The position numbers were made by a program, and so were the translations under genes. From Gammaproteobacteria bacterium HGW-Gammaproteobacteria-3 (lineage in GTDB: Bacteria > Pseudomonadota > Gammaproteobacteria > Methylococcales > Methylomonadaceae): a stretch of DNA of 12,717 nt. Where the stretch lies: the NCBI GenBank assembly GCA_002843155.1, contig PGZD01000079.1:1-12717 (forward strand), read 5' to 3'. This document shows positions 181 through 12,717 of this stretch, in pieces; the stretch's first letter is position 1, and every line of letters starts with the position of its first letter. Under the pieces are notes generated by a model. It was not told where the DNA came from, searched no databases, and saw only the letters and a program-made list of their open reading frames with translations.

Positions 181-520
181 ATGGCCCGATTCATCCAATA
201 CGACCGTAACCAATACTACCTGCTGCCGCCGTCGGTGGATGAATGGCTGCCCGAAGATCACTTCGCCCGGTACATCGTCGAAGTCATCGATCAACTGGGT
301 TTGTCGAAGCTGACCGGCCGCTATTCGCGCAGCGGTTCCGAGGCCTATCATCCGGCGTTGCTGCTGGCCTTATTGGTTTACGGCTATGCCACCGGCACCT
401 TCTCCAGTCGCAAAATAGAAATTGATTTTGTCGGTTTAACCGACCGAGTGCAATTTGACCACAGGCCCTGGAGTGCTTATAAAAACAGGATTGGCGACTT
501 GACGCAGTTGACGCCGGTTT
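181..520 (+). mobile_element. Truncated IS1182/IS5-superfamily transposase remnant; only the N-terminal InsH-like (DUF772) domain survives and no catalytic DDE region is present
   Basis: ORF 181..639 begins MARFIQYDRNQYYLLPPSVDEWLPEDHFARYIVEVIDQLGL...GSEAYHPALLLALLVYGYATGTFSSRKIE. This is the characteristic N-terminal signature of IS1182/IS5 transposases (YDRNQ..LLP, LPEDH.AR, YGY..G..SSRKIE). Recognisable similarity fades after about aa 80-110. The rest of the ORF is non-transposase sequence and overlaps the opposite-strand GGDEF gene. No DDE domain, second ORF or terminal inverted repeats were identified. Confidence 0.6.
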
Positions 521-2250
521 ATAAAAAAACTGTTGCCGTCGATTTTTTTGGCCAATTTTTTGGCTTCCGACGCCAGATCGGCTATCTCGACATGCGATTG
601 GCATTGGCTGGTTGCCAACGGGTCCACCAAACCCACTGACAGGCTCAGGAGCGGAAAAAAAACTGACTGGCCTTGCCGGTTTTCACTGGTAATGCCGCCC
701 GCTTTGACATCCGCCTCGTTATAAAAAGAAGGGGCGACGCTTTTGAATGTGTCCAGAATATCCTGGCAACGTTTCAGCCAATCCGGGCGGGTTAAAATGA
801 CAATGAAATCATCGCCGCCGATATGCCCGACTGTGCCAGATTCCGGCGTTATATGTTGGTTCAGCGTGTCGGCGACGGCTTTGATAATATCGTCACCGGC
901 GCTGTAACCGTAGGCATCGTTAAACGGCTTGAAGTGATCCAGATCAAAATAGGCGATGGCAAAAAAACTGTTCTGGTTGAGCAGTCTGTTGATCTTTTCA
1001 TTCATCGGCACATTGCCGGGCAGCAGGGTCAGCGGATTGGCGTGCTTGGCATTTTGAATCTGCTGGCGCGTTATTTCCTCAAGCAGGTCGAGCAAGGTGC
1101 CGACGCCTGCGTATTGGCCGTTATCGGTAATGATAAAAGCTTGATCGCTGCGTATGGCGGCAGTCACTTGTTGGCTGACTTTTTCCAGCGGCGTGTTGGC
1201 GTCAACCAGCAAGGGAGCGTGTTCAATAAATGATTTTATCGCCTGCTTACCGTACAACTCCAGACCATAACGGCTTGAAAACAGTTTGCTCAGGAATTTT
1301 TCGCGGCAAATAAGCCCTGTGGCCTTGCCGTTATCGACCAGCGGCTGGTTTTGTAATTGTGTGTTTTGATGAAACAGTGTCATGACGTCACTGATTGCAG
1401 TTTGTGCCGAAACCGGAACAATCCATTGGCTGATATCGGCTGCTATTTTGTTGTGTTGATCGATCTGCATTGTATGGGCTGAAACGAACAGGCCGGGACC
1501 GATTGTGGTCAGGGGCTGTGCAGCGGGCCTTGCAAAATAAAAACCCTGGGCGTGAGTGATGCCGAGTTTTTCAATGGCCTGGTATTCGGCCTTGATTTCG
1601 ATGCCTTCGGCAATCACTTTGCAGTTCATGGCTTGGGCGATGGCTTGAATGGAGCGGACAAAATTCAATTTGACCGGGTCTTGATGCAAACCCTGGATAA
1701 AATGTTTGTCGATTTTGACATAGTGGGGGCGTAGTTCGGACCAAAGTCTGAGGCCGGAATAACCGGCGCCCAAATCATCGAGTGCGATTTCAAATCCCAT
1801 ATTTTGGTAATGACTGACGGCTTCACGCATCAAATCGTAATCATCAGTGGGTTGATGTTCGGTGAGTTCGATAATGATGGAATGCGGGGCAATATTGAAT
1901 TGTTCAAGCAACCTCAGAGTTTCACCTTTTTTGAAGTCAGGCTCCAGCAGCACCGAAGGGCTGGCATTTAAAAATAATTTGGCGTCAAAGGCCAATTCGG
2001 CAAAGCGCTTGAGCGTGATTTCACGGCAAACGAACTCCAGTTTGGCTTGCAGGCCAAAGCGCCCGGCGGTATCGAAAAGATTGAACGGACTGTGCAGCGA
2101 GCTGTTTGAAGGGCCACGAATCAAAGCTTCATAACCGATGATTGTTTGTTGATGCAGCGAAATGACGGGTTGAAACACGGGCTTTAATAATTTACCATCA
2201 ATGATTCGAATCAACTCGTTATGTAAAGAAGTTATGTTCATTGGGGGCAA
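436..2250 (-). CDS. c-di-GMP turnover protein with N-terminal EAL phosphodiesterase domain, central CBS pair and C-terminal GGDEF domain (EAL-CBS-GGDEF)
   Basis: 604-aa ORF. The EAL domain carries YEALIR (nt about 2122-2130), DDLGAGYSG and EGIE motifs (aa about 25-245). The middle region (aa about 265-395) looks like CBS repeats. The GGDEF domain (aa about 415-578) carries FDLDHFKPFND and a variant active-site motif GGDDF (nt 805-819). The annotated start at 2250 is TTG; an in-frame ATG lies at 2241, and neither has a convincing SD. Confidence 0.9.
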   Translation of the reverse strand: MPPMNITSLHNELIRIIDGKLLKPVFQPVISLHQQTIIGYEALIRGPSNSSLHSPFNLFDTAGRFGLQAKLEFVCREITLKRFAELAFDAKLFLNASPSVLLEPDFKKGETLRLLEQFNIAPHSIIIELTEHQPTDDYDLMREAVSHYQNMGFEIALDDLGAGYSGLRLWSELRPHYVKIDKHFIQGLHQDPVKLNFVRSIQAIAQAMNCKVIAEGIEIKAEYQAIEKLGITHAQGFYFARPAAQPLTTIGPGLFVSAHTMQIDQHNKIAADISQWIVPVSAQTAISDVMTLFHQNTQLQNQPLVDNGKATGLICREKFLSKLFSSRYGLELYGKQAIKSFIEHAPLLVDANTPLEKVSQQVTAAIRSDQAFIITDNGQYAGVGTLLDLLEEITRQQIQNAKHANPLTLLPGNVPMNEKINRLLNQNSFFAIAYFDLDHFKPFNDAYGYSAGDDIIKAVADTLNQHITPESGTVGHIGGDDFIVILTRPDWLKRCQDILDTFKSVAPSFYNEADVKAGGITSENRQGQSVFFPLLSLSVGLVDPLATSQCQSHVEIADLASEAKKLAKKIDGNSFFINRRQLRQVANPVFISTPGPVVKLHSVG

Positions 2251-2395: not shown

Positions 2396-2452
2396 CAATC
2401 GCACTTAGACGGTAAGCAAAATAAACAAGCTGAATTGATAAGGCCGATAAAA

Positions 2453-4771
2453 ATGCCCGATACTTCTAAGAATAGTGGGGAAAACCGAGCGCCGATCCAG
2501 CTTGAATTGCTTGCGGCTAAAACCCGGCAGACGCTCAACTGCACGTTTAACCAGGCCTGTCGGCTGGGCAGTGCCAAGAGCAATGATGTTGTTATTGCCG
2601 GGGAAACCATTTCAGCCCATCACGCCAGAATTTTTGTCACCGACGATGGCGCTGTTTTCATTGGCGCCTGCGAGGGCGCCGCAGTTGCCGTCAACGGCAC
2701 GGTCGCCGATAAGCCTTTACTAGTAACCGCCGGCGATTGGGTGCTGTTGGGTTCCACTCCTTTCCAGGTCAAATTTAACAGCATCCCTCAGCCCCTTGTC
2801 GAGGTTGGTGACGCTTCTTCCCAACACATTGATTTATCGGGCAAGTCTGTATTGACCGTAGGTCGATTGCCGCAATGCGATATCGCCATCGCGTCGCCGC
2901 TGATTTCCCGTGAGCACGCCCGTTTGGTCAGGGCGGCGGACGGCTGGTTTATCGAAGATAGCGGCAGCACCAACGGCACTTTCCTCAATGCTGTGCGTGT
3001 TCTGGGCAGGCAAGCGCTAAAAGCCCATGATTGGCTAAGCTTTGCCGCTTTCGAGTATCAATTTGACGGACAGCGCATTATCCCCGGCAATCAAGCCGGG
3101 CAAGTCAATATCGAAGTGTATCGCTTGAGCAAAGAAGTCAGGGACGCATCGGGCCAAACCAAGCGCTTGCTCGATGATCTCAGTTTCGCCATCCGGCCGG
3201 GCGAATTTGTCGGCATTTTCGGCACCAGCGGTTCCGGTAAATCGACTTTGCTGGATGCCCTGAACGGCCGCCGCAGGGCTTCTTCCGGTGATATTTTATA
3301 CAACGGCACCGACTTGTATGGGGCTTTCGATCTGTTTCGCGCAGCCATCGGCTATGTGCCGCAACAAGACATTGTGCATCGTAAAATCATCATGCGCCAT
3401 GCCTTGAAATTTACCGCTAAATTGCGCTTGCCGCCGGACACTTCCGATGTCGAAATGGATGATAATGTGCTCAAGGTGCTGGAAAAAGTGGGGCTGGCAG
3501 AAAAAGCCTCATTGGCGGTGGACACACCTACGCCTTTGAGCGGTGGCCAGTTGAAGCGCGTCAGTCTGGCGGTGGAATTGGTCGCCAATCCCAATGTGCT
3601 GTTTTTGGATGAGGTAACCAGCGGCCTGGATGCCGGTACCGATAAAAAAATGATGCAACTGTTCCGGAGTCTGGCCGAAGACAAGAAAACCGTGATTTGC
3701 GTGACTCACACCCTGGAAAATATCGATACCTGTCATCTGGTGTTATTGCTGCATCAGGGGCGGCTGGTTTTTTTCGGCCCGCCGCAGGCCGTGGTCGGCT
3801 ATTTCGGCATGAAGCGTTTGTCCGATGTTTATGAACTGCTCGAAAGTCAGGTGGCTTCTTATTGGGCCGATAAATACCAGGCCTCCAGTTTTTATCACAC
3901 CTATGTCGCGCAGCGCTTGAACTTTTCCGGGCAGCGCACGGACGGCGCGACGCAAACAAACAGTGCACAACCGTCAGGCAAACCCGTTTCGCAAAGCTTG
4001 CGCCAGACCAGAACATTAATATTGCGTTATTGTGAGCTGATGCTGTCGGATCGAAAAAACCTGCTGATATTGGTATTGCAGGCGCCGTTGATTGCCCTGA
4101 TTATCGGTCTGGTGTTCGAAATGGACGCGCAATTGGCATTGCGGGCGGCCAAACAAAGTCAGATTCTCTTTATTCTGGTTTTATCGGCAATCTGGTTCGG
4201 ATGCCTGAATTCGGCGCGGGAACTGGTCAAGGAACTGCCGATTTATATCCGTGAACGCTCGGTCAATTTAGGTCTCGGGCCTTACATTGCCAGTAAACTG
4301 ATACCGTTATCGTTGCTTTGTTTACTGCAATGTCTATTATTGTTGGGTGTCATTGCCCTGTTGATCGACGTGCCGGGCAATTTTCCACAGCGCTTGTTGA
4401 TTTTGTTCGCATCGGGCATGGCGGCCACGACCATGGGTCTTTGCGTCAGCGCCTTTGTCAATTCCAATGACAAGGCCGTTGCCACCGTACCGATACTGCT
4501 GATTCCGCAGGTGATTCTGTCCGGCGCCGTGGTAACGCTTGAAGGCGCGGGGCTTTGGATAGCCAAGTTGAGCATGATTTCGTATTGGTCTTTTGATGCG
4601 ATGAAAGCGACGCTCAGCGAAGAAGTCAGAGCCGTCAAGGATTTTACCGGGAAAGCGCTGGTGCCCATTGCCGGAAGTTTTGGTCTGGATTTATTGGCGA
4701 TTGCCGCACTGGGGCTGTTTTTTCTGTTGGCAACAGGCATCGGGCTTAAACTCAAGGATACTAAAAAATGA
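2453..4771 (+). CDS. Tandem-FHA ABC transporter: two N-terminal FHA domains fused to an ABC ATPase (NBD) and a C-terminal ABC-2/ABCG-type six-helix membrane domain (half-transporter)
   Basis: FHA1 lies at about nt 2558-2776 (GETISAHHARIF...GDWVLLGSTPFQVKF). FHA2 lies at about nt 2850-3070 (LTVGRLPQCDIAIASPLISREHARL...GSTNGTFLN). Walker A GTSGSGKS is at 3221-3244. The ABC signature is LSGGQLKRVSLAVEL and Walker B is VLFLDEVTSGLD. A Ser/Thr-rich linker RTDGATQTNSAQPSGKPVSQS separates the NBD and TMD. Hydrophobic helices run from about nt 3990 to 4760. The probable start is ATG 2453 (AAGG 9 nt upstream); the track ORF begins at an in-frame TTG at 2435. Confidence 0.9.
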   Translation: MPDTSKNSGENRAPIQLELLAAKTRQTLNCTFNQACRLGSAKSNDVVIAGETISAHHARIFVTDDGAVFIGACEGAAVAVNGTVADKPLLVTAGDWVLLGSTPFQVKFNSIPQPLVEVGDASSQHIDLSGKSVLTVGRLPQCDIAIASPLISREHARLVRAADGWFIEDSGSTNGTFLNAVRVLGRQALKAHDWLSFAAFEYQFDGQRIIPGNQAGQVNIEVYRLSKEVRDASGQTKRLLDDLSFAIRPGEFVGIFGTSGSGKSTLLDALNGRRRASSGDILYNGTDLYGAFDLFRAAIGYVPQQDIVHRKIIMRHALKFTAKLRLPPDTSDVEMDDNVLKVLEKVGLAEKASLAVDTPTPLSGGQLKRVSLAVELVANPNVLFLDEVTSGLDAGTDKKMMQLFRSLAEDKKTVICVTHTLENIDTCHLVLLLHQGRLVFFGPPQAVVGYFGMKRLSDVYELLESQVASYWADKYQASSFYHTYVAQRLNFSGQRTDGATQTNSAQPSGKPVSQSLRQTRTLILRYCELMLSDRKNLLILVLQAPLIALIIGLVFEMDAQLALRAAKQSQILFILVLSAIWFGCLNSARELVKELPIYIRERSVNLGLGPYIASKLIPLSLLCLLQCLLLLGVIALLIDVPGNFPQRLLILFASGMAATTMGLCVSAFVNSNDKAVATVPILLIPQVILSGAVVTLEGAGLWIAKLSMISYWSFDAMKATLSEEVRAVKDFTGKALVPIAGSFGLDLLAIAALGLFFLLATGIGLKLKDTKK

Positions 4772-4793
4772 TGTGCAACGAGGCCGTGACAAG

Positions 4794-6338
4794 ATGAACG
4801 AAACCCTAGCGGAAGCCAGTCGCACCTGCCCTAAATGCGGCCATCGGGACGCGACCGAAAAAATAGAGGCGCATAAATACCGCTGTTCGGGATGTGAATA
4901 TGAAATGGCGCATATCGATACCGCGCCTAATGGCGCTATCCGGGGCATTTTCGGTTGGTTGAAAACGGTCGATGAGGTGATCGATTCACGTTATAAAATC
5001 CAGATGGTGCTGGGCAAAGGCGGGTTCGGCGCGACTTATCTGGTTGAAGATCAGCGCGTCAGCGGCAAACGCTGGGCGCTCAAGGAAATTCCGGAAATGC
5101 TCTTCGATGAATACGAAGTGTCGCTGCTGAGCGGCCTGGATCATCCTTCGATTCCGATTATCGTTGATCGTTTCAACGAAAATGGCATGGTGTATCTGGT
5201 ACTGAAATTCGGCGGCAGCCGCACGCTCGCCACGGAATGTAAACAACACAACAGAATCGTTTTTCCGAAGCTCAAAAACTGGGCTATCCAGATAGCCGAA
5301 GTGCTTGGCTATCTGCATTCACGAAATCCGCCGATCATTCACAGGGATTTAAAGCCGGAAAATGTCTTGCTCGATGATGAAGATCGCATCATGCTGATCG
5401 ATTTCGGTATCGCCAAGGAAGCATCACCTACCGAAATGACCCGCACATTAGGCCGCGCGGCTTCCATCGGCTTCAGTCCGCCGGAGCAGGTGATGGGCAC
5501 GGGCACCGACATACGCTCCGATATTTATTCCCTCGCGGCTACCGTTTATTTTGCCGCGACCGGCCAGACGCCTGTCGCCGCGCATGAACGTGTGTCCGGC
5601 AAAGCGCTGATAGAACCCAAACAGATTGCCACCGAATTACCCGATGCCGTCAATGCGATGCTGTTGAAAGGGCTCAACCTCAATGTCAACGAACGCCCGC
5701 AAACGGTTGCGGAATTTATCGGCGTTTTCAGTGATGACCTGCCGTCGGCGACTGAGGCGATGTTGTCCGGCAAAACCGTGCAAATCTCGGAGCTTCAATT
5801 CGGTCCGGTTATCAAGACGGCATTGAATCCTTCGACGCCGCTGACCCGGATGAATTCCGCCGCTGTCCACGCTGAAAAAAAAGCGGGTCTGAAGTTCGGT
5901 TTGATTATCGGAGCTGTTATGCTTCTGGCCGCTATGACTGGTGGCGCTTATTGGCTGTTAAATAAAGATGAAACGGCAACGCCACTGCAAGAGGTCGCCA
6001 GCCCGGAAGCGCAAACACCGCCCGTAAGCCCGGCGCAACCTCAACTGGCGACTGTTGACACGCAATCGCCCAAAGCCGCTGCAACGGGCGGGGACGGAGC
6101 GGATAACGCCGGACTCTCGGCCATGGACATTTTAAACAAGCGCAGACAAACGCAGGCGGAGCCGAAGCCGGAACCGGTGGTCAATAAAGCCGCGCAACAG
6201 CTCGATTCGACACGGACGGCACAAAAAACCGTAGTGCCGAAACCAAAATCCAAGCCTAAACCGGTCGCCAGAGCGAAGTCCAAGGAAGATAATTCAGGTT
6301 GGGTGATTATTCCGGGCCAAACCCAAAAAATACGCTGA
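4794..6338 (+). CDS. Hanks-type Ser/Thr protein kinase with N-terminal C4 zinc ribbon, single TM helix and Pro/Lys/Ala-rich low-complexity C-terminal tail
   Basis: The zinc ribbon is CPKCGH-x16-CSGCEY. Kinase motifs are the Gly loop GKGGFG, WALKEI (VAIK lysine), HRDLKPENVLL, DFG and SPPE (APE-like), spanning about nt 4990-5700. The hydrophobic segment LKFGLIIGAVMLLAAMTGGAYWLL is at about nt 5890-5960. The tail has PKPEP/KPKSKPKPVARAKSK repeats. The ATG at 4794 lies 22 nt after the upstream stop. The longer track ORF from 4668 overlaps the ABC gene and is rejected. Confidence 0.9.
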   Translation: MNETLAEASRTCPKCGHRDATEKIEAHKYRCSGCEYEMAHIDTAPNGAIRGIFGWLKTVDEVIDSRYKIQMVLGKGGFGATYLVEDQRVSGKRWALKEIPEMLFDEYEVSLLSGLDHPSIPIIVDRFNENGMVYLVLKFGGSRTLATECKQHNRIVFPKLKNWAIQIAEVLGYLHSRNPPIIHRDLKPENVLLDDEDRIMLIDFGIAKEASPTEMTRTLGRAASIGFSPPEQVMGTGTDIRSDIYSLAATVYFAATGQTPVAAHERVSGKALIEPKQIATELPDAVNAMLLKGLNLNVNERPQTVAEFIGVFSDDLPSATEAMLSGKTVQISELQFGPVIKTALNPSTPLTRMNSAAVHAEKKAGLKFGLIIGAVMLLAAMTGGAYWLLNKDETATPLQEVASPEAQTPPVSPAQPQLATVDTQSPKAAATGGDGADNAGLSAMDILNKRRQTQAEPKPEPVVNKAAQQLDSTRTAQKTVVPKPKSKPKPVARAKSKEDNSGWVIIPGQTQKIR

Positions 6339-6450
6339 GACACGATTTGGCGTTGGACCATCAAGGATTTAATGAATATCGGGGGCTGAAGTTTTCAAAC
6401 CCGATTTTCAGGGATGAAAGAACTTTTCAATAATTTAAGAGGGGGTTGTC

Positions 6451-7614
6451 ATGATTATGCGTTTCAAACAAAGGCTGTCGGCTGCAAATACAGGAGGCAG
6501 AGGAGTGGGCGCCGGGTTGTTGACGGTGCTGATTCTGGTTCAGGCCGTGCTGTTTTCGACGGCGGCGAATGCCGGAGGCTACGGCTCTGCGGCACTGGGC
6601 AGTTATGGGGTAAAAGTATACCGGGTCAATTCAGCCCTGTATCCTTTTGTCCAGCTTTATATCAGGACTTTCGATCAAAATATGCAGCCGTTGGTAAATC
6701 TCAACGAACTGAACATCGGTCTGATGATTAAAGGCAAGTCCTATGATCCGACTAAACGCCAATACGGCATTCAAACCTTGCGTCGGCGCAGTGAGGCGAC
6801 GCGTTCCGTATTGGTGCTCGATGCCAGTAAATCCATGGTGGGACCTGCGTTTGAAACGGCTTTGCGGGCGGCGGCCCGCTTTATCGACAGCAAGCGGCCA
6901 CAGGATGAAGTCGCGGTACTCGCCATTCGCGATACCAAGGAGGGCTATGAACTGGTGTCGGAATTCGAACGTGATAGCGGCGCTTTGGCAAGAAGGCTCG
7001 CCGATATTAAAGTCGATGGCATGAACAGCCGTATTTACGATTCCGTCGGAGCAAGCATACAAATGTGCGGCATGTCCTCGCAAGGTTCTTCCGTCGATCC
7101 TTCGGCCGATAATTTTATCGCCTCGTGTTCGATCGTGGTCTTTTCCGATGGTCGGGATGAGGGCAGTGCGCTGTCACGCGAAGAGCTGAATGCAAGGATT
7201 ACCGCGTTGCCGATTCCCGTTCCGGTTTATTCGCTGGCCTATGGCGCTAATTCCGTTCAATATTTCAGAAACCTGGAATCCATTTCCAAAAATTCATTCG
7301 GTATCTATTATTCGTTGGGTGAAACCTATGACCGAATGCAGCGTGTCGTCGAAGAAATCCAGAATATTCTGCAAAGCGACTATGTCGTGACTTTCCGTTC
7401 CTATCTTCCGGTTGACGGCGAGCAGCACGCTTTTAAAGTGGGCGTTGAATACCCCACCGGCAGCGGAAAATATTACTATGACAAAGGCGAATTCGAAGCG
7501 ATAGAGCCGCCGCCCATTCAAGCAATTGATAATGCCCTGCAACTGCTGGAACAAAAAATTCCGGCCTTAGCGGACAACGACCCCTATTACAAAAGACCGG
7601 CGCCGGGTCAATAG
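6451..7614 (+). CDS. Secreted von Willebrand factor type A (VWA) domain protein with intact MIDAS motif
   Basis: A strong RBS GAGGGGG lies 6 nt upstream of ATG 6451. The N-terminus MIMRFKQRLSAANTGGRGVGAGLLTVLILVQAVLFSTAANA is signal-peptide-like. The VWA fold spans about nt 6810-7240, with MIDAS D-A-S-K-S (LVLDASKSM) and downstream T and D (VVFSDGRDEG). The C-terminal region of about 120 aa has no obvious family. Confidence 0.85.
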   Translation: MIMRFKQRLSAANTGGRGVGAGLLTVLILVQAVLFSTAANAGGYGSAALGSYGVKVYRVNSALYPFVQLYIRTFDQNMQPLVNLNELNIGLMIKGKSYDPTKRQYGIQTLRRRSEATRSVLVLDASKSMVGPAFETALRAAARFIDSKRPQDEVAVLAIRDTKEGYELVSEFERDSGALARRLADIKVDGMNSRIYDSVGASIQMCGMSSQGSSVDPSADNFIASCSIVVFSDGRDEGSALSREELNARITALPIPVPVYSLAYGANSVQYFRNLESISKNSFGIYYSLGETYDRMQRVVEEIQNILQSDYVVTFRSYLPVDGEQHAFKVGVEYPTGSGKYYYDKGEFEAIEPPPIQAIDNALQLLEQKIPALADNDPYYKRPAPGQ

Positions 7615-7638
7615 TCTTAAACTAAGGAGAATGGGAAA

Positions 7639-8256
7639 ATGAATCAACAATTGGCAAGAACAACGGTGAGCGCGATCATTTGCGCGAGTTTGCTCACCGG
7701 TTGCGCAACTACACAGGAAAACCAGCAAGCCTGGGGAGCCGGGTTGGGCGCGATTACCGCCGGATTGGCCACGGGATTGGCCACCGGTAATGTCGGTTAC
7801 GGGATTGCCGCTGCGGTAGGCGGCGCGGCCATCGGATGGGGCGCGGTCAAGCTGGCGCAATATAACTCCGAACAGGTGCGCAGCGCTTCTCAGGACCAGG
7901 CCTTGTATGGTTTCACGCCTTCATCGAACGCGACGCTGGTCAAACTACACAAAGGTACGGCGTCTCCCGATACGGTAGCGCCCGGACAGCAGGTGCAAAT
8001 TGCCAGCGATTATTCGTTAGCGGTTCCTGAAGCTCAAAATATGACAGCGGTGCAGGAAAGCTGGACCCTAAAAAAAGATGGTCAAGTTCTTTTTCAGGCC
8101 GACCCGCAGAATGTACAGCGGACAGCCGGGGGGTATGCCGTCAATGCTACCATCCCGATACCCAAAAACGCTTCGGCCGGTACCTATGTCGTTGAAACCC
8201 GCGTGCAGGCAGGCACCAGCAGTGATTTCAACCAGGCCGTCTTTGTCGTTCAGTAA
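7639..8256 (+). CDS. Lipoprotein with N-terminal glycine-zipper region (SlyB/17-kDa-antigen-like) and a C-terminal beta-rich domain of unknown function
   Basis: RBS AAGGAG lies 9 nt upstream. The lipobox is LLTGC (SAIICASLLTGCATTQ). The glycine zipper is GAGLGAITAGLATGLATGNVGYGIAAAVGGAAIGWGAV. The gene is 24 nt downstream of the VWA gene. Confidence 0.8.
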   Translation: MNQQLARTTVSAIICASLLTGCATTQENQQAWGAGLGAITAGLATGLATGNVGYGIAAAVGGAAIGWGAVKLAQYNSEQVRSASQDQALYGFTPSSNATLVKLHKGTASPDTVAPGQQVQIASDYSLAVPEAQNMTAVQESWTLKKDGQVLFQADPQNVQRTAGGYAVNATIPIPKNASAGTYVVETRVQAGTSSDFNQAVFVVQ

Positions 8257-8260
8257 CAGG

Positions 8261-8959
8261 GTGTCGTCAGGCGGGCTATGCTTGATGGTCTGCGCATTCG
8301 GTTATGCCGAACCCGCAGACGCCATTTGCGCCGGTGAAGTCAGCCGGTCAATGGCCGCCGCCTTGCGCATTGAGCAGGAATGGCCATTGAGACCGAGTCA
8401 GGACAGTATCACCCGTTATTTGCAAAATCTGGGAGAGCGTTTGCTGCCTCGCGGCGGTTCCTGGTTAAAGTGGCTTAGGGCGGATGACTGGCCGGCTTCC
8501 GGCTGGTTTTTTTTTACCGTTAGGGATCGTGCGATCAATGCGTTTTCCATTGGCAACGGGCGCATTTATCTGACCGACGGCAGTTTTGATTTTGTCGATA
8601 ACGAAGCTGAATTGGCGGCTATCGTTGCTCATGAAATAGGGCATCAACTGGCCGGACATTTCTGCCAAGCCACGGACCGCACCGGTCGTGAACAAAATTC
8701 CCTGGGTTCTCTGGTGCAGGTTGTCGATATCGAAAAAGAAATGGAAGCCGATGCCATTGCGTTGAAACTTTTAAGTTCGGCCGGTTTCCCGCCGCAGGCC
8801 TTACTGAAAATCATCAGCCGCTTACCGCTGACCGGCAATAGCGCGCAGCAGCGTTTAAGATTGGATAAGTTAAACGAAAAACTGCAAGACGCAAATGTTT
8901 CGCCGCTATTTTCCAGTTCCCGGGTGTTTTTACAGCTCAAAAAGTCATTGCCTCGATAA
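8261..8959 (+). CDS. M48-family zinc metallopeptidase (HExxH plus E-x-EAD third ligand; BepA/YcaL/LoiP-like). Start uncertain
   Basis: Motifs are AIVAHEIGHQLAGH (HExxH) and EKEMEADAIALKLL (M48 EMEAD motif). Candidate starts are GTG 8261 (5 nt after the lipoprotein stop, suggesting translational coupling), TTG 8282 or ATG 8285. The track ORF from 8078 overlaps the lipoprotein gene in another frame and is rejected. The N-terminus (LCLMVCAFGYA) is only weakly signal-peptide-like. Confidence 0.75.
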   Translation: MSSGGLCLMVCAFGYAEPADAICAGEVSRSMAAALRIEQEWPLRPSQDSITRYLQNLGERLLPRGGSWLKWLRADDWPASGWFFFTVRDRAINAFSIGNGRIYLTDGSFDFVDNEAELAAIVAHEIGHQLAGHFCQATDRTGREQNSLGSLVQVVDIEKEMEADAIALKLLSSAGFPPQALLKIISRLPLTGNSAQQRLRLDKLNEKLQDANVSPLFSSSRVFLQLKKSLPR

Positions 8960-8978
8960 CATCAAGGCATGAGCGTTT

Positions 8979-9725
8979 ATGAAATTTAAATTTTTTAAAA
9001 GATCGAGTCAAAAATCATCCTGTCCACTTGTGCAAGTCAGCGCTCTTTCTCATCCGGGACGTGTCCGGGATAATAACGAAGACAGCTTTATACTGTTGCC
9101 CGATTGGGGAGTTTGGGCCATTGCCGACGGCATGGGCGGTCATCAGTGCGGCGAAGTCGCCAGCGCCATCGGCTTGATGGCCTTGCAGCGATCGCTCGTA
9201 GCCGGTGACAATCTGGTGCATTCGATACAAAATGCCCATCAGGCAATCAAAAAGCAAGCCGAGCAGGACACTACAAAAAGTGGCATGGGTACGACGCTGG
9301 TGGCGGTACAAATACACGGGGAAAGTTATCGGGTGGCTTGGGTCGGCGATAGCCGGGCCTATTTATGGCACAATGGCTTGAGGCAATTGACCCGGGATCA
9401 TAGCTATGTGCAAATGCTGCTGGAGCAAGGGCTGATCGATGAGGCCGACGTCCTGACACATCCTTATAAAAATGTCATCACGCAGGCTTTGGGTAGCCTG
9501 GATAAGGAGTCGGTTCAGGTCGAGACGATAGAGGAAAAATGGAAGTCAGGCGCTAACTTGCTGCTGTGCAGCGATGGCTTGAGCAGTCAGTTAAGCGACT
9601 CAGAGATTGCGGCCATTCTGGCAACGGATTGCTGTTTGGAGCAAAAAGCCGGGCAGCTTTTGACACGGGTCTTGGCTAACACGGCTGAAGATAATATCAC
9701 ACTGATCTTATTGGCCTTGCCATGA
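8979..9725 (+). CDS. PP2C-family Ser/Thr protein phosphatase (Stp/PrpC/PppA-like)
   Basis: Motifs are VSALSHPGRVRDNNEDSF, WAIADGMGGHQCGEVAS, GMGTTLVAV, VGDSRAYLW, NVITQALGS and LLCSDGLS, the canonical metal-binding Asp/Gly motifs of bacterial PP2C. The gene is 19 nt downstream of the M48 gene. Confidence 0.9.
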   Translation: MKFKFFKRSSQKSSCPLVQVSALSHPGRVRDNNEDSFILLPDWGVWAIADGMGGHQCGEVASAIGLMALQRSLVAGDNLVHSIQNAHQAIKKQAEQDTTKSGMGTTLVAVQIHGESYRVAWVGDSRAYLWHNGLRQLTRDHSYVQMLLEQGLIDEADVLTHPYKNVITQALGSLDKESVQVETIEEKWKSGANLLLCSDGLSSQLSDSEIAAILATDCCLEQKAGQLLTRVLANTAEDNITLILLALP

Positions 9726-9755: not shown

Positions 9756-10682
9756 TTAAACACATTTCGATATATCCACGCCGGTTTTGTCCAACAGTTC
9801 CCGGCGTAGCTTTTCCGCTTCCGCCACTTTTTGCATCAAGTCCGGTTCCGGACAGTGTTTATCAGTGAAGCGTCTGATACCGCCCGTTTTTCTCTCGTTG
9901 ATAACTTCAACGATGGTCTTCCAGCCAATATCCTTATCATCATTGGCAAAAGCAAACACTAAAGCAAGATCGCATACATTGTTGATCAGTCTGGGTACAC
10001 CGGCGGTGTAATAAAAGATGGCGGCTGACGCCGATTTTTTAAAAATCGGTGTTTGTCTGCCGGCAATGCGCAGTCTGTGCTCGATGTATTGCTCGGTTTC
10101 TTCAAAATTAAGGGGCAAAAGATGATATTCAATGGAAATACGTTGGGCGAACTGTACGAGCTGAGGCTCGTTCAGTTTATCGACCAGTTCGGGTTGTCCG
10201 ACTAAAATCAACTGCAACAGTATTTCTTGCGTTACATTAATGTTGGAGAGCAGCCGGAGTTCTTCCAGTGTTTCGATTTCCATGTTCTGGGCTTCATCGA
10301 CGATCAGGACGACGCGGCGCTTTTTTTGACCTTGTTCGTGGAGAAATTTGACAAAGAGCTGATAACGTTCGGCTTTGTTATTAGTGTTGTGTTCAATATT
10401 GAAAGCCGCCAGAACCCAGGTCAGCAAGTCGCCAAAAGAGCTATGGGTGTTGGTAATGATGCCCACAGTGCACTGTTTTTCAATTTTGTTCAACATGCAG
10501 CGGATTAAAGTGGTCTTGCCTGAACCTATTTCACCGGTAATCACGGTAAAGCCTGCGTGGCTCATAAGTCCGTACTCCAGGGTGGTTAAAGCTTTTCTGT
10601 GTTTAGGGCTTAAAAATAAAAACTCCGGATCGGGAATCAGAGAAAAGGGCTTTTTTTTCAGTCCAAAGAATTGAGTGTACAT
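9756..10682 (-). CDS. ExeA/GspA-family AAA ATPase, short form with cytoplasmic ATPase domain only (MshM / PEP-CTERM-associated ATPase-like)
   Basis: Family signatures are MYTQFFGLKKKPFSLIPDPEFLFLSPKHRKAL, Walker A GEIGSGKTT, Walker B VVLIVDEAQN, ILVGQPEL and AGVPRLINNVCDLAL. No TM segment and no peptidoglycan-binding C-terminal domain are present. I prefer the ATG at 10682 (AAGAGA-like RBS upstream) over the track start at 10700. The gene converges on the PP2C gene across a 30-nt gap. Confidence 0.85.
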   Translation of the reverse strand: MYTQFFGLKKKPFSLIPDPEFLFLSPKHRKALTTLEYGLMSHAGFTVITGEIGSGKTTLIRCMLNKIEKQCTVGIITNTHSSFGDLLTWVLAAFNIEHNTNNKAERYQLFVKFLHEQGQKKRRVVLIVDEAQNMEIETLEELRLLSNINVTQEILLQLILVGQPELVDKLNEPQLVQFAQRISIEYHLLPLNFEETEQYIEHRLRIAGRQTPIFKKSASAAIFYYTAGVPRLINNVCDLALVFAFANDDKDIGWKTIVEVINERKTGGIRRFTDKHCPEPDLMQKVAEAEKLRRELLDKTGVDISKCV

Positions 10683-10934
10683 GCGTTTTTCTCTTACCAA
10701 CTGTGATGAATCATGGAAAAATGCTGATAGTCTATCGGTTAAGTTTTAACTGTTCCTGAATCGAACAGTAGATGATGAATGGAAACACACAGGAGTCCCA
10801 TGATTTTGAGTTAACAGCTTTTTCATTATAGCGTATTCAGTCAGGCCATGCCCTCAGGATAAGGTGTGATTTATGGGCTTAAAAGTGTTGCCATCTCATT
10901 TTTTAGCGCCTCAAGATACTGCAACCGGCAAAAA

Positions 10935-11588
10935 TCATCCAAAAAGTTGCTTTATCAGAGCAGTTACGCTTATCAGCAAATCCTGTTTAGTGTTGTCGAG
11001 TGCGTAGTTATTTTCATAGGTGGAAAAATCTATATTGGCCCGGCTTTGCTTTTTCTTTTTTTGGCTGTGTCGCCGTGCTTGTAATAATTGGCCGCCCGCT
11101 CTTTTCCATTCCATAAGATGAGTGATTTCACCGCTATCGAGCCAGATGCCATGCGCCGGACAACGGTCTATAATAACGCCGCTGCGGTGACCAAAATTAA
11201 TGCGGCTCATGAAGTTTTGGCATACCGGACATTTGATATACTTTGTTTTCTGCTGAGCCTGAAAACGGTCGGCATTGATGTTGACCAGATGTTTGCGGTT
11301 GATAGTGAACGTTGCAGCTACCGAACTTTCCAAAAACCGTTCTATTTCATCTGGATCAAAAAATAAACCGTAACAGCTCCCGCAGCGTTCGATCAAAAAT
11401 TCTTTTTGTGGATCGAGGCTGATAGTTTGTAAAGCTTCATCGCAATGCGGACAGATGCGATTTGAAGCATCGTTGTATAAAGCGTAATCGAACTTGCCGG
11501 TCAGATCAACATCATTGCGCACACCGCAATAACGACATCGATTGGTATTGGCTAAAAGTGGTGCGGAACAACTGTTGCAGCGCGCCAT
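10935..11588 (-). CDS. Zinc-ribbon protein with an N-terminal CxxC..CxxC pair and two zf-TFIIB-type modules (YdjG-like)
   Basis: The N-terminal ribbon is CNSC..CRYC. Module 1 is CPHC..CGSCYGLFFDPDEIE and module 2 is CPVC..IDRCPAHGIWLDSGEITHL, matching the zf-TFIIB pattern CPxC-x(15-20)-CxxCxGxWxDxGE. The C-terminus is basic (KKKKQSR). The start ATG at 11588 lies 3 nt after the stop of the upstream SPFH gene. Confidence 0.8.
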   Translation of the reverse strand: MARCNSCSAPLLANTNRCRYCGVRNDVDLTGKFDYALYNDASNRICPHCDEALQTISLDPQKEFLIERCGSCYGLFFDPDEIERFLESSVAATFTINRKHLVNINADRFQAQQKTKYIKCPVCQNFMSRINFGHRSGVIIDRCPAHGIWLDSGEITHLMEWKRAGGQLLQARRHSQKKKKQSRANIDFSTYENNYALDNTKQDLLISVTALIKQLFG

Positions 11589-11591
11589 GGC

Positions 11592-12605
11592 TCACCAACT
11601 GTCGAGGATGTTTTTTTTCCGGGCACTGTATTCATCAACGGTTATCAATCCGGCATCGTGCATTTTTTTCAATTCGAGCAGTTTTTTCATCAGATCGGTT
11701 GCCTCTTGTCTCGATTCGACCGAAATACCTTTGGATAAGGATTGCGCCATGCTTTGGCCCAAACCCATGCCGGCCCCCATGCCCATGCCTAAACCGGCGC
11801 CACCGCCTTCATTTCGAGCCGCTTCGAGCATTGCTTCAAGTTGCTGCAATTGGGCATAATTAATGCCAACGGCTTGAGCCGCCTGGGCTTCTGCGGTCAG
11901 GTCGGCGATGCGGTTAATGCGTCTTAAAGTATCATCGTCAAACTGGGTGCCTTCAATTCGAAAATCAGTCAGCTTAAAACCCAGCTCGTGAAAAACGCTG
12001 GACAGTTTGTTTTGCATACCGTGTCCGATTTCTTCACGGTTGGCGTCAATATCGGCATAGCTAAATTTATTTTCCGCAAGATAGTCAGCCAGCGGGTGTA
12101 GAATGCGCGCAGACATAATGTTGCGGAAATCTTCGTTATAAAAATCGTTTTGACTACCGACGATGTGGGTAAAAAAATTGATCGCATCCTGAATCCGGTA
12201 GCTGTAATTCCCGAATGCCTTTAAGCCTATGGGAAACCGGTATTTTGGGTCTTCATATTTTATGGTTGAGGTAGTACCCCATTTTTGATCAAGCTGCGTT
12301 GTTTTTTTGAAGAAATAAATGCCGACTTTATGTTCACTTTCAAAAAACTGCATGAATTTTTTGACCGTGGTCCAGAAGGGGATATTAGCCGTATTCAGCT
12401 CAATCAGACCTTCTTCCTGAAGCACGGCTTTTACCTCTCCTTCGTAAACGAAAATACAGCCCTGACCTGGACCTACAATCAGTTTGGAAGCGTTTTTGAT
12501 TTCATCGCCATTCTCCGTCCATCGCTGAAACAATGCGTCGGGATGCGGGCTATGCCATTCAATAACCGAACGAAGTTGTCGTTTGATGCCGTCAAAAAGC
12601 GCCAT
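11592..12605 (-). CDS. SPFH/Band_7_1-family protein with Gly/Met-rich linker and C-terminal SHOCT domain (YdjI-like)
   Basis: The N-terminus MALFDGIKRQLRSVIEWHSPHPDALFQRWTENGDEIKNASKLIVGPGQGCIFV matches the YdjI-type SPFH family signature (VIEW...D.LF.RW...EIKN.SKLIV.PGQ). The linker EGGGAGLGMGMGAGMGLGQS is at nt 11754-11810. The SHOCT-like tail is QEATDLMKKLLELKKMHDAGLITVDEYSARKKNIL. I prefer the ATG at 12605 (GAGG 7-8 nt upstream) over the track start at 12653. Confidence 0.85.
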   Translation of the reverse strand: MALFDGIKRQLRSVIEWHSPHPDALFQRWTENGDEIKNASKLIVGPGQGCIFVYEGEVKAVLQEEGLIELNTANIPFWTTVKKFMQFFESEHKVGIYFFKKTTQLDQKWGTTSTIKYEDPKYRFPIGLKAFGNYSYRIQDAINFFTHIVGSQNDFYNEDFRNIMSARILHPLADYLAENKFSYADIDANREEIGHGMQNKLSSVFHELGFKLTDFRIEGTQFDDDTLRRINRIADLTAEAQAAQAVGINYAQLQQLEAMLEAARNEGGGAGLGMGMGAGMGLGQSMAQSLSKGISVESRQEATDLMKKLLELKKMHDAGLITVDEYSARKKNILDSW

Positions 12606-12717
12606 GTTTAGCCTCGCTATTAAGTTGAATCGTACAGAGGCCATGCTGAGCAAAGGAATAGCCTCTCAAAAGAATTGGTTTTATAATGAAAAAAAGTATA
12701 GTCAAAATTTGCAGGAG

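Follow-up and report, generated by a model that had tools for sequence, protein, structure and literature searches.

The question addressed here is what is encoded by two adjacent genes at the end of a 12,717-nucleotide (nt) stretch of DNA from Gammaproteobacteria bacterium HGW-Gammaproteobacteria-3 (contig PGZD01000079.1; the whole stretch is called the window below): a reduced version of the pspA-ydjGHI (pspA-samGHI) membrane-stress operon of Bacillus, as a first-pass annotation of the sequence supposed, or a module of a different kind. One gene encodes an SPFH protein with a Band_7_1 domain and the other a protein with zinc ribbons. With moderate confidence, we propose that they form a two-gene operon, in which a cytoplasmic Band_7_1 SPFH scaffold having no transmembrane (TM) helix would work with a dedicated, membrane-proximal adaptor having three zinc ribbons, with a probable role in membrane organisation or envelope stress. 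The genes and the region ahead of them are arranged as follows.

10935..11588, minus strand: zinc-ribbon gene, 217 amino acids (aa), triple ribbon, starting 3 nt past the stop codon of the SPFH gene.
11592..12605, minus strand: SPFH gene, 337 aa, with a Band_7_1 core, a helical region, a Gly/Met-rich motif and a SHOCT-like tail.
12606..12717, minus strand: 5' region of the operon, part of a 117-nt divergent intergenic region toward a hexapeptide-repeat gene beyond the window.

The mechanical list of open reading frames (ORFs) gave the SPFH frame as 11592..12653, with a TTG start and 353 aa, and the first-pass annotation accordingly placed the start at 12653. Based on comparison with relatives, the true start is the ATG at 12605, because the orthologues have about 337 aa, the aligned ones open with MA(L/I)FDGIKRQL and the gene callers on the parent contig also give 337 aa; GAGG is present 7 nt ahead of this ATG. 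The junction of the two genes, TGA-GCC-ATG, had been read correctly. Its 3-nt gap indicates one operon and makes translational coupling plausible, so that the tight operon stands while the co-translation claimed from it was overstated.

We consider the SPFH protein first, in which three features are relevant.

11910..12524, minus strand: Band_7_1 (SPFH) domain, residues 28-232 (PF13421, 128.3 bits against a cut-off of 24, E 4.2e-37).
11736..11813, minus strand: Gly/Met-rich motif NEGGGAGLGMGMGAGMGLGQSMAQSL, residues 265-290, aligned and partly invariant among relatives.
11604..11681, minus strand: SHOCT-like two-helix tail, residues 309-334 (PF09851, 25.3 bits against a cut-off of 27, E 1.2e-5).

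The protein is 26% identical to Bacillus YdjI over 267 aa (residues 8-270, E 2e-29), where the YdjI reference is a B. tequilensis protein that is 97% identical to the B. subtilis-group cluster. Because of this similarity and the shared Gly/Met-rich motif, we regard the protein, by sequence, as a genuine member of the YdjI (SamI) family, in agreement with the YdjI-like character first ascribed to it. The stretch GGGAGLGMGMGAGMGLG had been described as a Gly/Met-rich flexible linker. The stretch is present, but the alignment argues that it is a hallmark motif of the family and more than a linker: the motif A-x-N-E-G-G-x-A-G-x-G-M-G...M-A can be aligned, partly invariant, from Bacillus to the window protein, with G268, A270, G275 and M286 being invariant across seven divergent members including YdjI, and with the Ralstonia and GYF-type relatives also aligned. 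In the AlphaFold 2 (AF2) monomer model, the predicted local distance difference test score (pLDDT) of the motif is below 50, and that of most of the core is about 85-92. The model gives the protein the SPFH fold, since the Foldseek search with it retrieved stomatin (4.9e-9), then prohibitin, HflK/C, flotillin, erlin and QmcA-YbbJ. No TM helix is seen in the protein (KD19 maximum 0.74), and neither NCBIfam nor the sequence search of the PDB gave a match for it. As to the tail, the SHOCT assignment made earlier falls slightly below the cut-off in this protein itself. Many SPFH orthologues of about 70% identity are annotated with PF09851 (precomputed), a Ralstonia relative scores 29.9 bits, and the AF2 model places two helices (297-317 and 323-336) at the extreme C-terminus, where the blocks from residue 301 have mean pLDDT of 70-85. 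Because the orthologues carry PF09851 and the tail is modelled as a two-helix hairpin, it is accepted here as SHOCT-like.

The ribbon protein has the following features.

11526..11579, minus strand: zinc ribbon 1, residues 4-21, CxxC...CxxC with ligands C4, C7, C18 and C21; weak DZR match.
11328..11456, minus strand: zinc ribbon 2, zf-TFIIB type with a helix after it, ligands C46, C49, C69 and C72; best PF13453 stretch, residues 45-87.
11109..11237, minus strand: zinc ribbon 3, zf-TFIIB type, ligands C120, C123, C143 and H146, with the motif HGIWLDxGE and then EWxxAGG; second PF13453 stretch.
11040..11075, minus strand: basic tract RRHSQKKKKQSR, inside a variable charged spacer; present here, its sequence not conserved across the family.
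10938..10982, minus strand: C-terminal amphipathic helix DLLISVTALIKQLFG, the predicted membrane-targeting end.

The profile Zn_ribbon_TFIIB (PF13453) matches the protein in two stretches with 60.2 bits against a cut-off of 22. The profile searches thus place the two proteins in Band_7_1 and zf-TFIIB, the families named by the first-pass annotation, and the tandem zf-TFIIB ribbons that it described are present; with the additional N-terminal ribbon, however, the protein has three ribbons rather than two. In an alignment of 40 diverse members of the ribbon family, with identity down to 28%, all four Cys of this first ribbon are invariant. Among the 12 metal-ligand positions (11 Cys and 1 His), 10 are invariant and the other two, C72 and H146, are found in 90% or more of the members; HGIWLDxGE and EWxxAGG are also conserved. 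The family is large, an exhaustive HMMER search giving 108 clusters at 50% identity with E < 1e-30 and 1110 with E < 1e-10. The AF2 model of the protein (pLDDT 91, predicted template-modelling score 0.78) shows three ribbons and a long C-terminal helix. The sole match in the PDB sequence search is that of ribbon 3 to 8yoz_A (E 2.5e-4), an unnamed 82-aa entry for which no paper mentioning it was found, and NCBIfam gave only a far sub-threshold RNA-polymerase match.

It is noted that the part of the ribbon protein after the ribbons is where the membrane enters our model. The basic tail KKKKQSR, from which membrane or nucleic-acid association had been suggested, is present, with a net charge of +7 over residues 165-185, but it sits in the non-conserved charged spacer and is rejected as a functional motif; the conserved element is instead the terminal amphipathic helix. 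A hydrophobic or amphipathic terminus is conserved in position in about 38 of the 40 members. The mean of the best 11-residue hydrophobic moment is 0.62 at the terminus versus 0.28 in the spacer, and for comparison the membrane-targeting helices of MinD and FtsA give 0.45 and 0.57, respectively. The window protein has no TM helix (KD19 maximum 0.45), and in 9 of 150 family representatives the C-terminal segment is of TM-grade hydrophobicity. Note also that the C-terminal end has several variants in the family: a Pmp3 two-TM domain in P0376 (263 aa), a Kdo/WaaP-kinase-like fragment in P0464 (294 aa) and a plain TM helix in P0427 and P0508.

We now consider whether the two genes belong together. 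A metagenome scan with the ribbon-family alignment gave 80 loci, of which 55 are evaluable because 900 nt or more of sequence precedes the ribbon gene. In 42 of these 55, the gene immediately ahead of the triple-ribbon gene, on the same strand, is a Band_7_1 gene. The partners fall into two classes. In the first the SPFH proteins are 55-71% identical to that of the window, SHOCT tail included; in the second, found in about a dozen loci, they are 26-32% identical, score about 350 bits with Band_7_1, keep the Gly/Met motif and have a GYF_2 end. Because both SHOCT-tailed and GYF_2-tailed SPFH genes precede triple-ribbon genes, the partnership follows the SPFH core and not the tail. With so many relatives in the databases (2283 for the SPFH protein and 431 for the ribbon protein) and with the adjacency kept, the pairing is judged to be far above chance, and on these comparisons the pair is a conserved and widely distributed module across divergent lineages. 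In Methylomarinum vadi and Methylomonas sp. LL1, the divergent hexapeptide gene, the SPFH gene and the ribbon gene again occur as a trio, the two genes of the pair being 2 nt apart, and the genes downstream of the pair are entirely different. The hexapeptide-repeat neighbour was considered as a part of the module and rejected, being conserved in close relatives only.

The observation that the window shows no pspA or ydjH-like gene is also confirmed, now over a longer region. On the parent contig, the SPFH gene is followed on its 5' side by the 117-nt gap, the divergent hexapeptide-repeat gene, aroE, a gene of unknown function, hemB and an MlaC-domain gene, with neither pspA nor ydjH upstream of the pair. 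Searches by tblastn with Bacillus PspA, YdjG and YdjH gave no match in the window or in 21 kb of the parent contig (L001), nor in the 16-17-kb loci around the pair in M. vadi and Methylomonas sp. LL1; PspA and YdjH have no match in the 80 related loci.

By contrast, a homologue of YdjG does occur, directly downstream of the triple-ribbon gene, in six of the metagenomic loci (L069, L071, L077, L082, L083 and L085). By direct BLASTP, the homologues of L071 and L083 match Bacillus YdjG with E from 1e-29 to 1e-32, at 24% identity over about 350 aa, and the downstream homologues share with Bacillus YdjG the C-terminal ending LLPxWM...G-x-V-x-G-x-x-P...TM. (The Bacillus YdjG used here was obtained through a protein search with YdjI and a contig look-up of the pspA-ydjGHI locus of the B. 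subtilis group.) In L071, L082 and L083, which have enough upstream sequence, the genes make up a three-gene operon of Band_7_1-GYF_2, triple ribbon and YdjG-like, where the proteobacterial-type dyad appears joined to the YdjG component of Bacillus with no pspA or ydjH. Because the two proteins are encoded side by side in the six loci, the triple-ribbon protein and YdjG are separate components and not equivalents. The coordinates of the operon in L083 are 1454-2620, 2628-3320 and 3308-4414, and the YdjG homologues of the three-gene operons have two ribbons, a globular domain and a C-terminal TM helix.

With these results, our model of the module can be described as follows. Stomatin-, prohibitin-, HflK/C- and flotillin-type SPFH proteins have been solved as large membrane-associated oligomers or cages. 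Like them, the SPFH protein of the window would oligomerise on the cytoplasmic side of the inner membrane, giving a scaffold shaped like a ring or a cage. The ribbon protein would be a membrane-proximal adaptor or co-scaffold, with its three ribbons serving as a platform for protein binding and its C-terminal amphipathic helix, which is replaced by a true TM anchor in some relatives, tethering the complex to the membrane. Further membrane contacts may come from the Gly/Met-rich segment and the SHOCT tail; Ravi et al. 2024 predicted that SHOCT-like domains anchor proteins at the inner leaflet (PMC11237479). YdjI of Bacillus is soluble and needs YdjG/YdjH for its recruitment to the membrane (Scholz et al. 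2021, PMC8581546), and the module would do by different means, with an unrelated protein, what YdjG/YdjH do for YdjI. It would act without PspA or with PspA encoded elsewhere. By analogy with Bacillus, its role is probably in membrane organisation or envelope stress. A stronger form of the model is also possible, to which we give somewhat less than even weight: Band_7_1 and the triple ribbon would constitute a distinct, widespread, PspA-independent SPFH system, where a tail-anchored or amphipathic ribbon adaptor couples a soluble cage to the inner membrane and YdjG is an optional third component in some lineages.

Several points weigh against the model. The membrane-stress function is extrapolated from Bacillus alone, and the binding of the SPFH and ribbon proteins to each other is presumed. 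Among 150 family representatives no natural SPFH-ribbon fusion was seen. Structure searches with the ribbon-protein model gave no informative analogue among solved structures, and we know of no role for the PF13453 zf-TFIIB ribbons, large as this family is. It could also be the SPFH protein, and not lipid, onto which the terminal helix docks. In addition, 13 of the 55 evaluable loci, with G+C of 0.33-0.66, have the ribbon gene in unrelated contexts with no adjoining SPFH gene. In a close relative, L025 (G+C 0.33), the hexapeptide-repeat gene (796-1314, minus strand) is directly beside the triple-ribbon gene (1378-1971, plus strand) and the SPFH gene is missing, as if it had been lost and the ribbon gene retained. 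Based on the 13 orphan loci and this loss, the ribbon protein can exist alone, or else it acts in trans.

The orphan loci bear as well on the best-surviving alternative, where the ribbon protein would bind nucleic acids or act as a regulator, being sequestered at the membrane by the SPFH scaffold and released on stress, much as PspA holds PspF. Besides the solitary ribbon genes, the basic tract with its charge of +7 and the label "Zn-finger nucleic acid-binding protein" given by JGI to relatives would fit this idea, as would the global transcriptional changes that follow loss of SamI in Bacillus (bioRxiv 10.64898/2026.02.06.704340). However, the basic tract is not conserved, the JGI name is an automatic label, and Pfam finds no helix-turn-helix (HTH) or other DNA-binding domain in the ribbon protein, while what is conserved is a hydrophobic or TM terminus, pointing to the membrane. 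We consider this regulatory alternative unlikely.

Next is the reading that prompted the question, in which the pair is the pspA-ydjGHI core of Bacillus minus pspA and ydjH, with the ribbon protein as the equivalent of YdjG. The likeness on the SPFH side is real: the window protein and YdjI share Band_7_1, solubility with no TM helix, the Gly/Met-rich segment past the SPFH/helical core and an adjoining partner gene that bears zinc ribbons. YdjG (SamG) and the ribbon protein both open with zinc ribbons, are operon partners of a Band_7_1 protein and have a membrane-anchored C-terminal end, which is predicted in the window protein; pspA is indeed not nearby. The differences are nevertheless larger. 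YdjG has 341 aa, with PF08271 (Zn_Ribbon_TF) ribbons, a YpeB/NTF2-like globular domain of about 250 aa and a C-terminal TM helix (PMC11237479), whereas the ribbon protein belongs to PF13453 and has after its ribbons just the charged spacer and a 15-aa helix, and the two show no significant similarity (BLASTP E 0.46). This removes both the YdjG-like label first given to the ribbon protein and the idea that Band_7_1 with zf-TFIIB is the conserved core of pspA-ydjGHI. Moreover, YdjI has a C-terminal zinc ribbon (Zn_ribbon_3) after the Gly/Met-rich low-complexity segment, where the window protein ends in SHOCT; its gene comes last in an operon that also contains pspA, ydjG and ydjH (TPM domain), all three of them absent beside the window pair; its partners are integral membrane proteins, unlike the ribbon protein; and the gene order is reversed, with ydjG ahead of ydjI in Bacillus and the SPFH gene ahead of the ribbon gene here. 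Together with the YdjG homologues downstream of triple-ribbon genes in the six loci, these differences have already largely refuted the reading as a minimal YdjI/YdjG pair, and we give it only a small chance.

It may also be asked whether the pair serves in anti-phage defence or abortive infection, disrupting the membrane once a phage infects. Surveys of conflict systems do include SPFH and SHOCT domains, and generic PADLOC matches are seen for the neighbouring kinase and ATPase. Of the pair itself, however, neither protein matches any PADLOC family; the pair stands among housekeeping genes with order-level synteny; the orthologues keep 55-70% identity, typical of core genes; viral contigs contain single-ribbon fragments only and no full-length member of the ribbon family; and no plasmid match to the ribbon protein was obtained by tblastn. 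A defence function of this kind is very improbable.

The remaining alternative, that the pair, the AAA_22 ATPase gene (same strand, 234 nt downstream) and the FHA-ABC/Ser-Thr kinase/VWA/M48/PP2C cluster directly after it form one larger signalling system, can scarcely be credited, because M. vadi and Methylomonas sp. LL1 lack these neighbours beside the pair, none of the 80 related loci contains a match to the AAA_22 protein, and the cluster is convergent on the opposite strand and is not conserved beside the SPFH pair in relatives; as parts of the module the ATPase and the kinase cluster are rejected.

We return to the model of an SPFH scaffold with a ribbon adaptor and compare it with other related systems. 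In stomatin/QmcA-NfeD (YbbK-YbbJ) and HflK/C-FtsH an SPFH scaffold is likewise encoded with a dedicated partner. Those scaffolds, however, have N-terminal TM or hairpin anchors and their partner is NfeD or a protease, whereas the window protein has no TM helix and its partner is a zinc-ribbon protein, in which Pfam finds no NfeD match. Band_7_1 is the commonest partner of SHOCT (Eberhardt et al. 2013, PMC3581485), and the combination of SPFH/Band-7 with GYF has been known since 2007 (Balaji and Aravind, PMC2034487). PspA-free polyamine operons having band-7, 2TM and SHOCT proteins were described by Ravi et al. 2024 (PMC11237479). On plasmids or chromids the SPFH protein has 154 relatives, for the most part from the Ralstonia megaplasmid, and the locus there is such an operon. 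The Ralstonia protein resembles the window SPFH protein in Band_7_1, in the ARNEGG/Gly-rich segment and in the SHOCT tail; it differs in being only 29% identical and in its neighbours, which are DUF350, DUF4178 and speD, with no triple-ribbon gene. The position of Band_7_1 beside a ribbon-bearing DUF4178 suggests that the association of SPFH with zinc ribbons is a recurrent theme. In the R. solanacearum megaplasmid CP047137.1 (L008, 3543-7150), the order is DUF350, Band_7_1-SHOCT, DUF4178 with N-terminal and central zinc ribbons, a small ORF and speD.

As to the source of the DNA, a 34.7-kb JGI contig contains the window at 100% identity, and each of the two proteins has a 100% match in the metagenome-assembled genome of Gammaproteobacteria bacterium HGW-Gammaproteobacteria-3, a methanotroph-related bacterium (P0001 for the SPFH protein and P0121 for the ribbon protein). 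The named close relatives of both are all Methylococcales (Methylomarinum, Methylomonas and Methylomicrobium), and the Gram-negative context assumed from the start is correct. A scan for promoters and terminators gave nothing beyond the shuffled expectation, and Rfam gave no match.

The other genes of the window are described briefly. The AAA_22 ATPase (9756-10700, minus strand) scores 299.5 bits with TIGR03015, the XrtA/PEP-CTERM system-associated ATPase, below the cut-off of 324.5 bits, and no PEP-CTERM or exosortase genes are near it. The compact signalling cluster at 2435-9725 on the plus strand encodes a 778-aa double-FHA ABC transporter (ABC_tran and ABC2_membrane), a Ser/Thr kinase that carries a zinc ribbon at its N-terminus, a VWA protein, a lipoprotein, an M48 peptidase and a PP2C phosphatase; matches of the kinase to the PADLOC kinase models mad6 and PD-T4-6 are generic only. 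The ORF of the lipoprotein (7639-8256) and that of the M48 peptidase (8078-8959, plus strand, 293 aa) overlap by about 180 nt, and since the gene call on the contig is 224 aa, the true start of the peptidase is further downstream. At the window edge, an ORF at 181-639 on the plus strand, overlapping the 3' end of an EAL-GGDEF gene (436-2250, minus strand), begins like the N-terminus of a DUF772/IS5-type transposase (Pfam, 20.1 bits against a cut-off of 23.1), after which the similarity is lost; it is probably a truncated insertion-sequence remnant.

Finally, we note what is new here and what it would mean. Catalogues already contain every one of the domains and the two SPFH architectures, and there is experimental work on the Bacillus system; a literature search found no description of the dyad of Band_7_1 and a triple PF13453 ribbon, nor of its being independent of pspA or coexisting with YdjG. 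We regard the significance as moderate, with no new biochemical principle demonstrated. An annotation error is corrected, in that a zinc-ribbon gene beside a Band_7_1 gene is not automatically ydjG. The soluble Band_7_1 branch has been studied in Bacillus only, where PspA is linked to the membrane through YdjG/YdjH, and the present locus shows that proteobacteria and many uncultured lineages pair the Band_7_1 core with a different dedicated partner and with no adjoining pspA. If the adaptor model is true, this would be a second and simpler route by which an SPFH scaffold is brought to the membrane, and it would give the first functional handle on the large PF13453 'zf-TFIIB' family.

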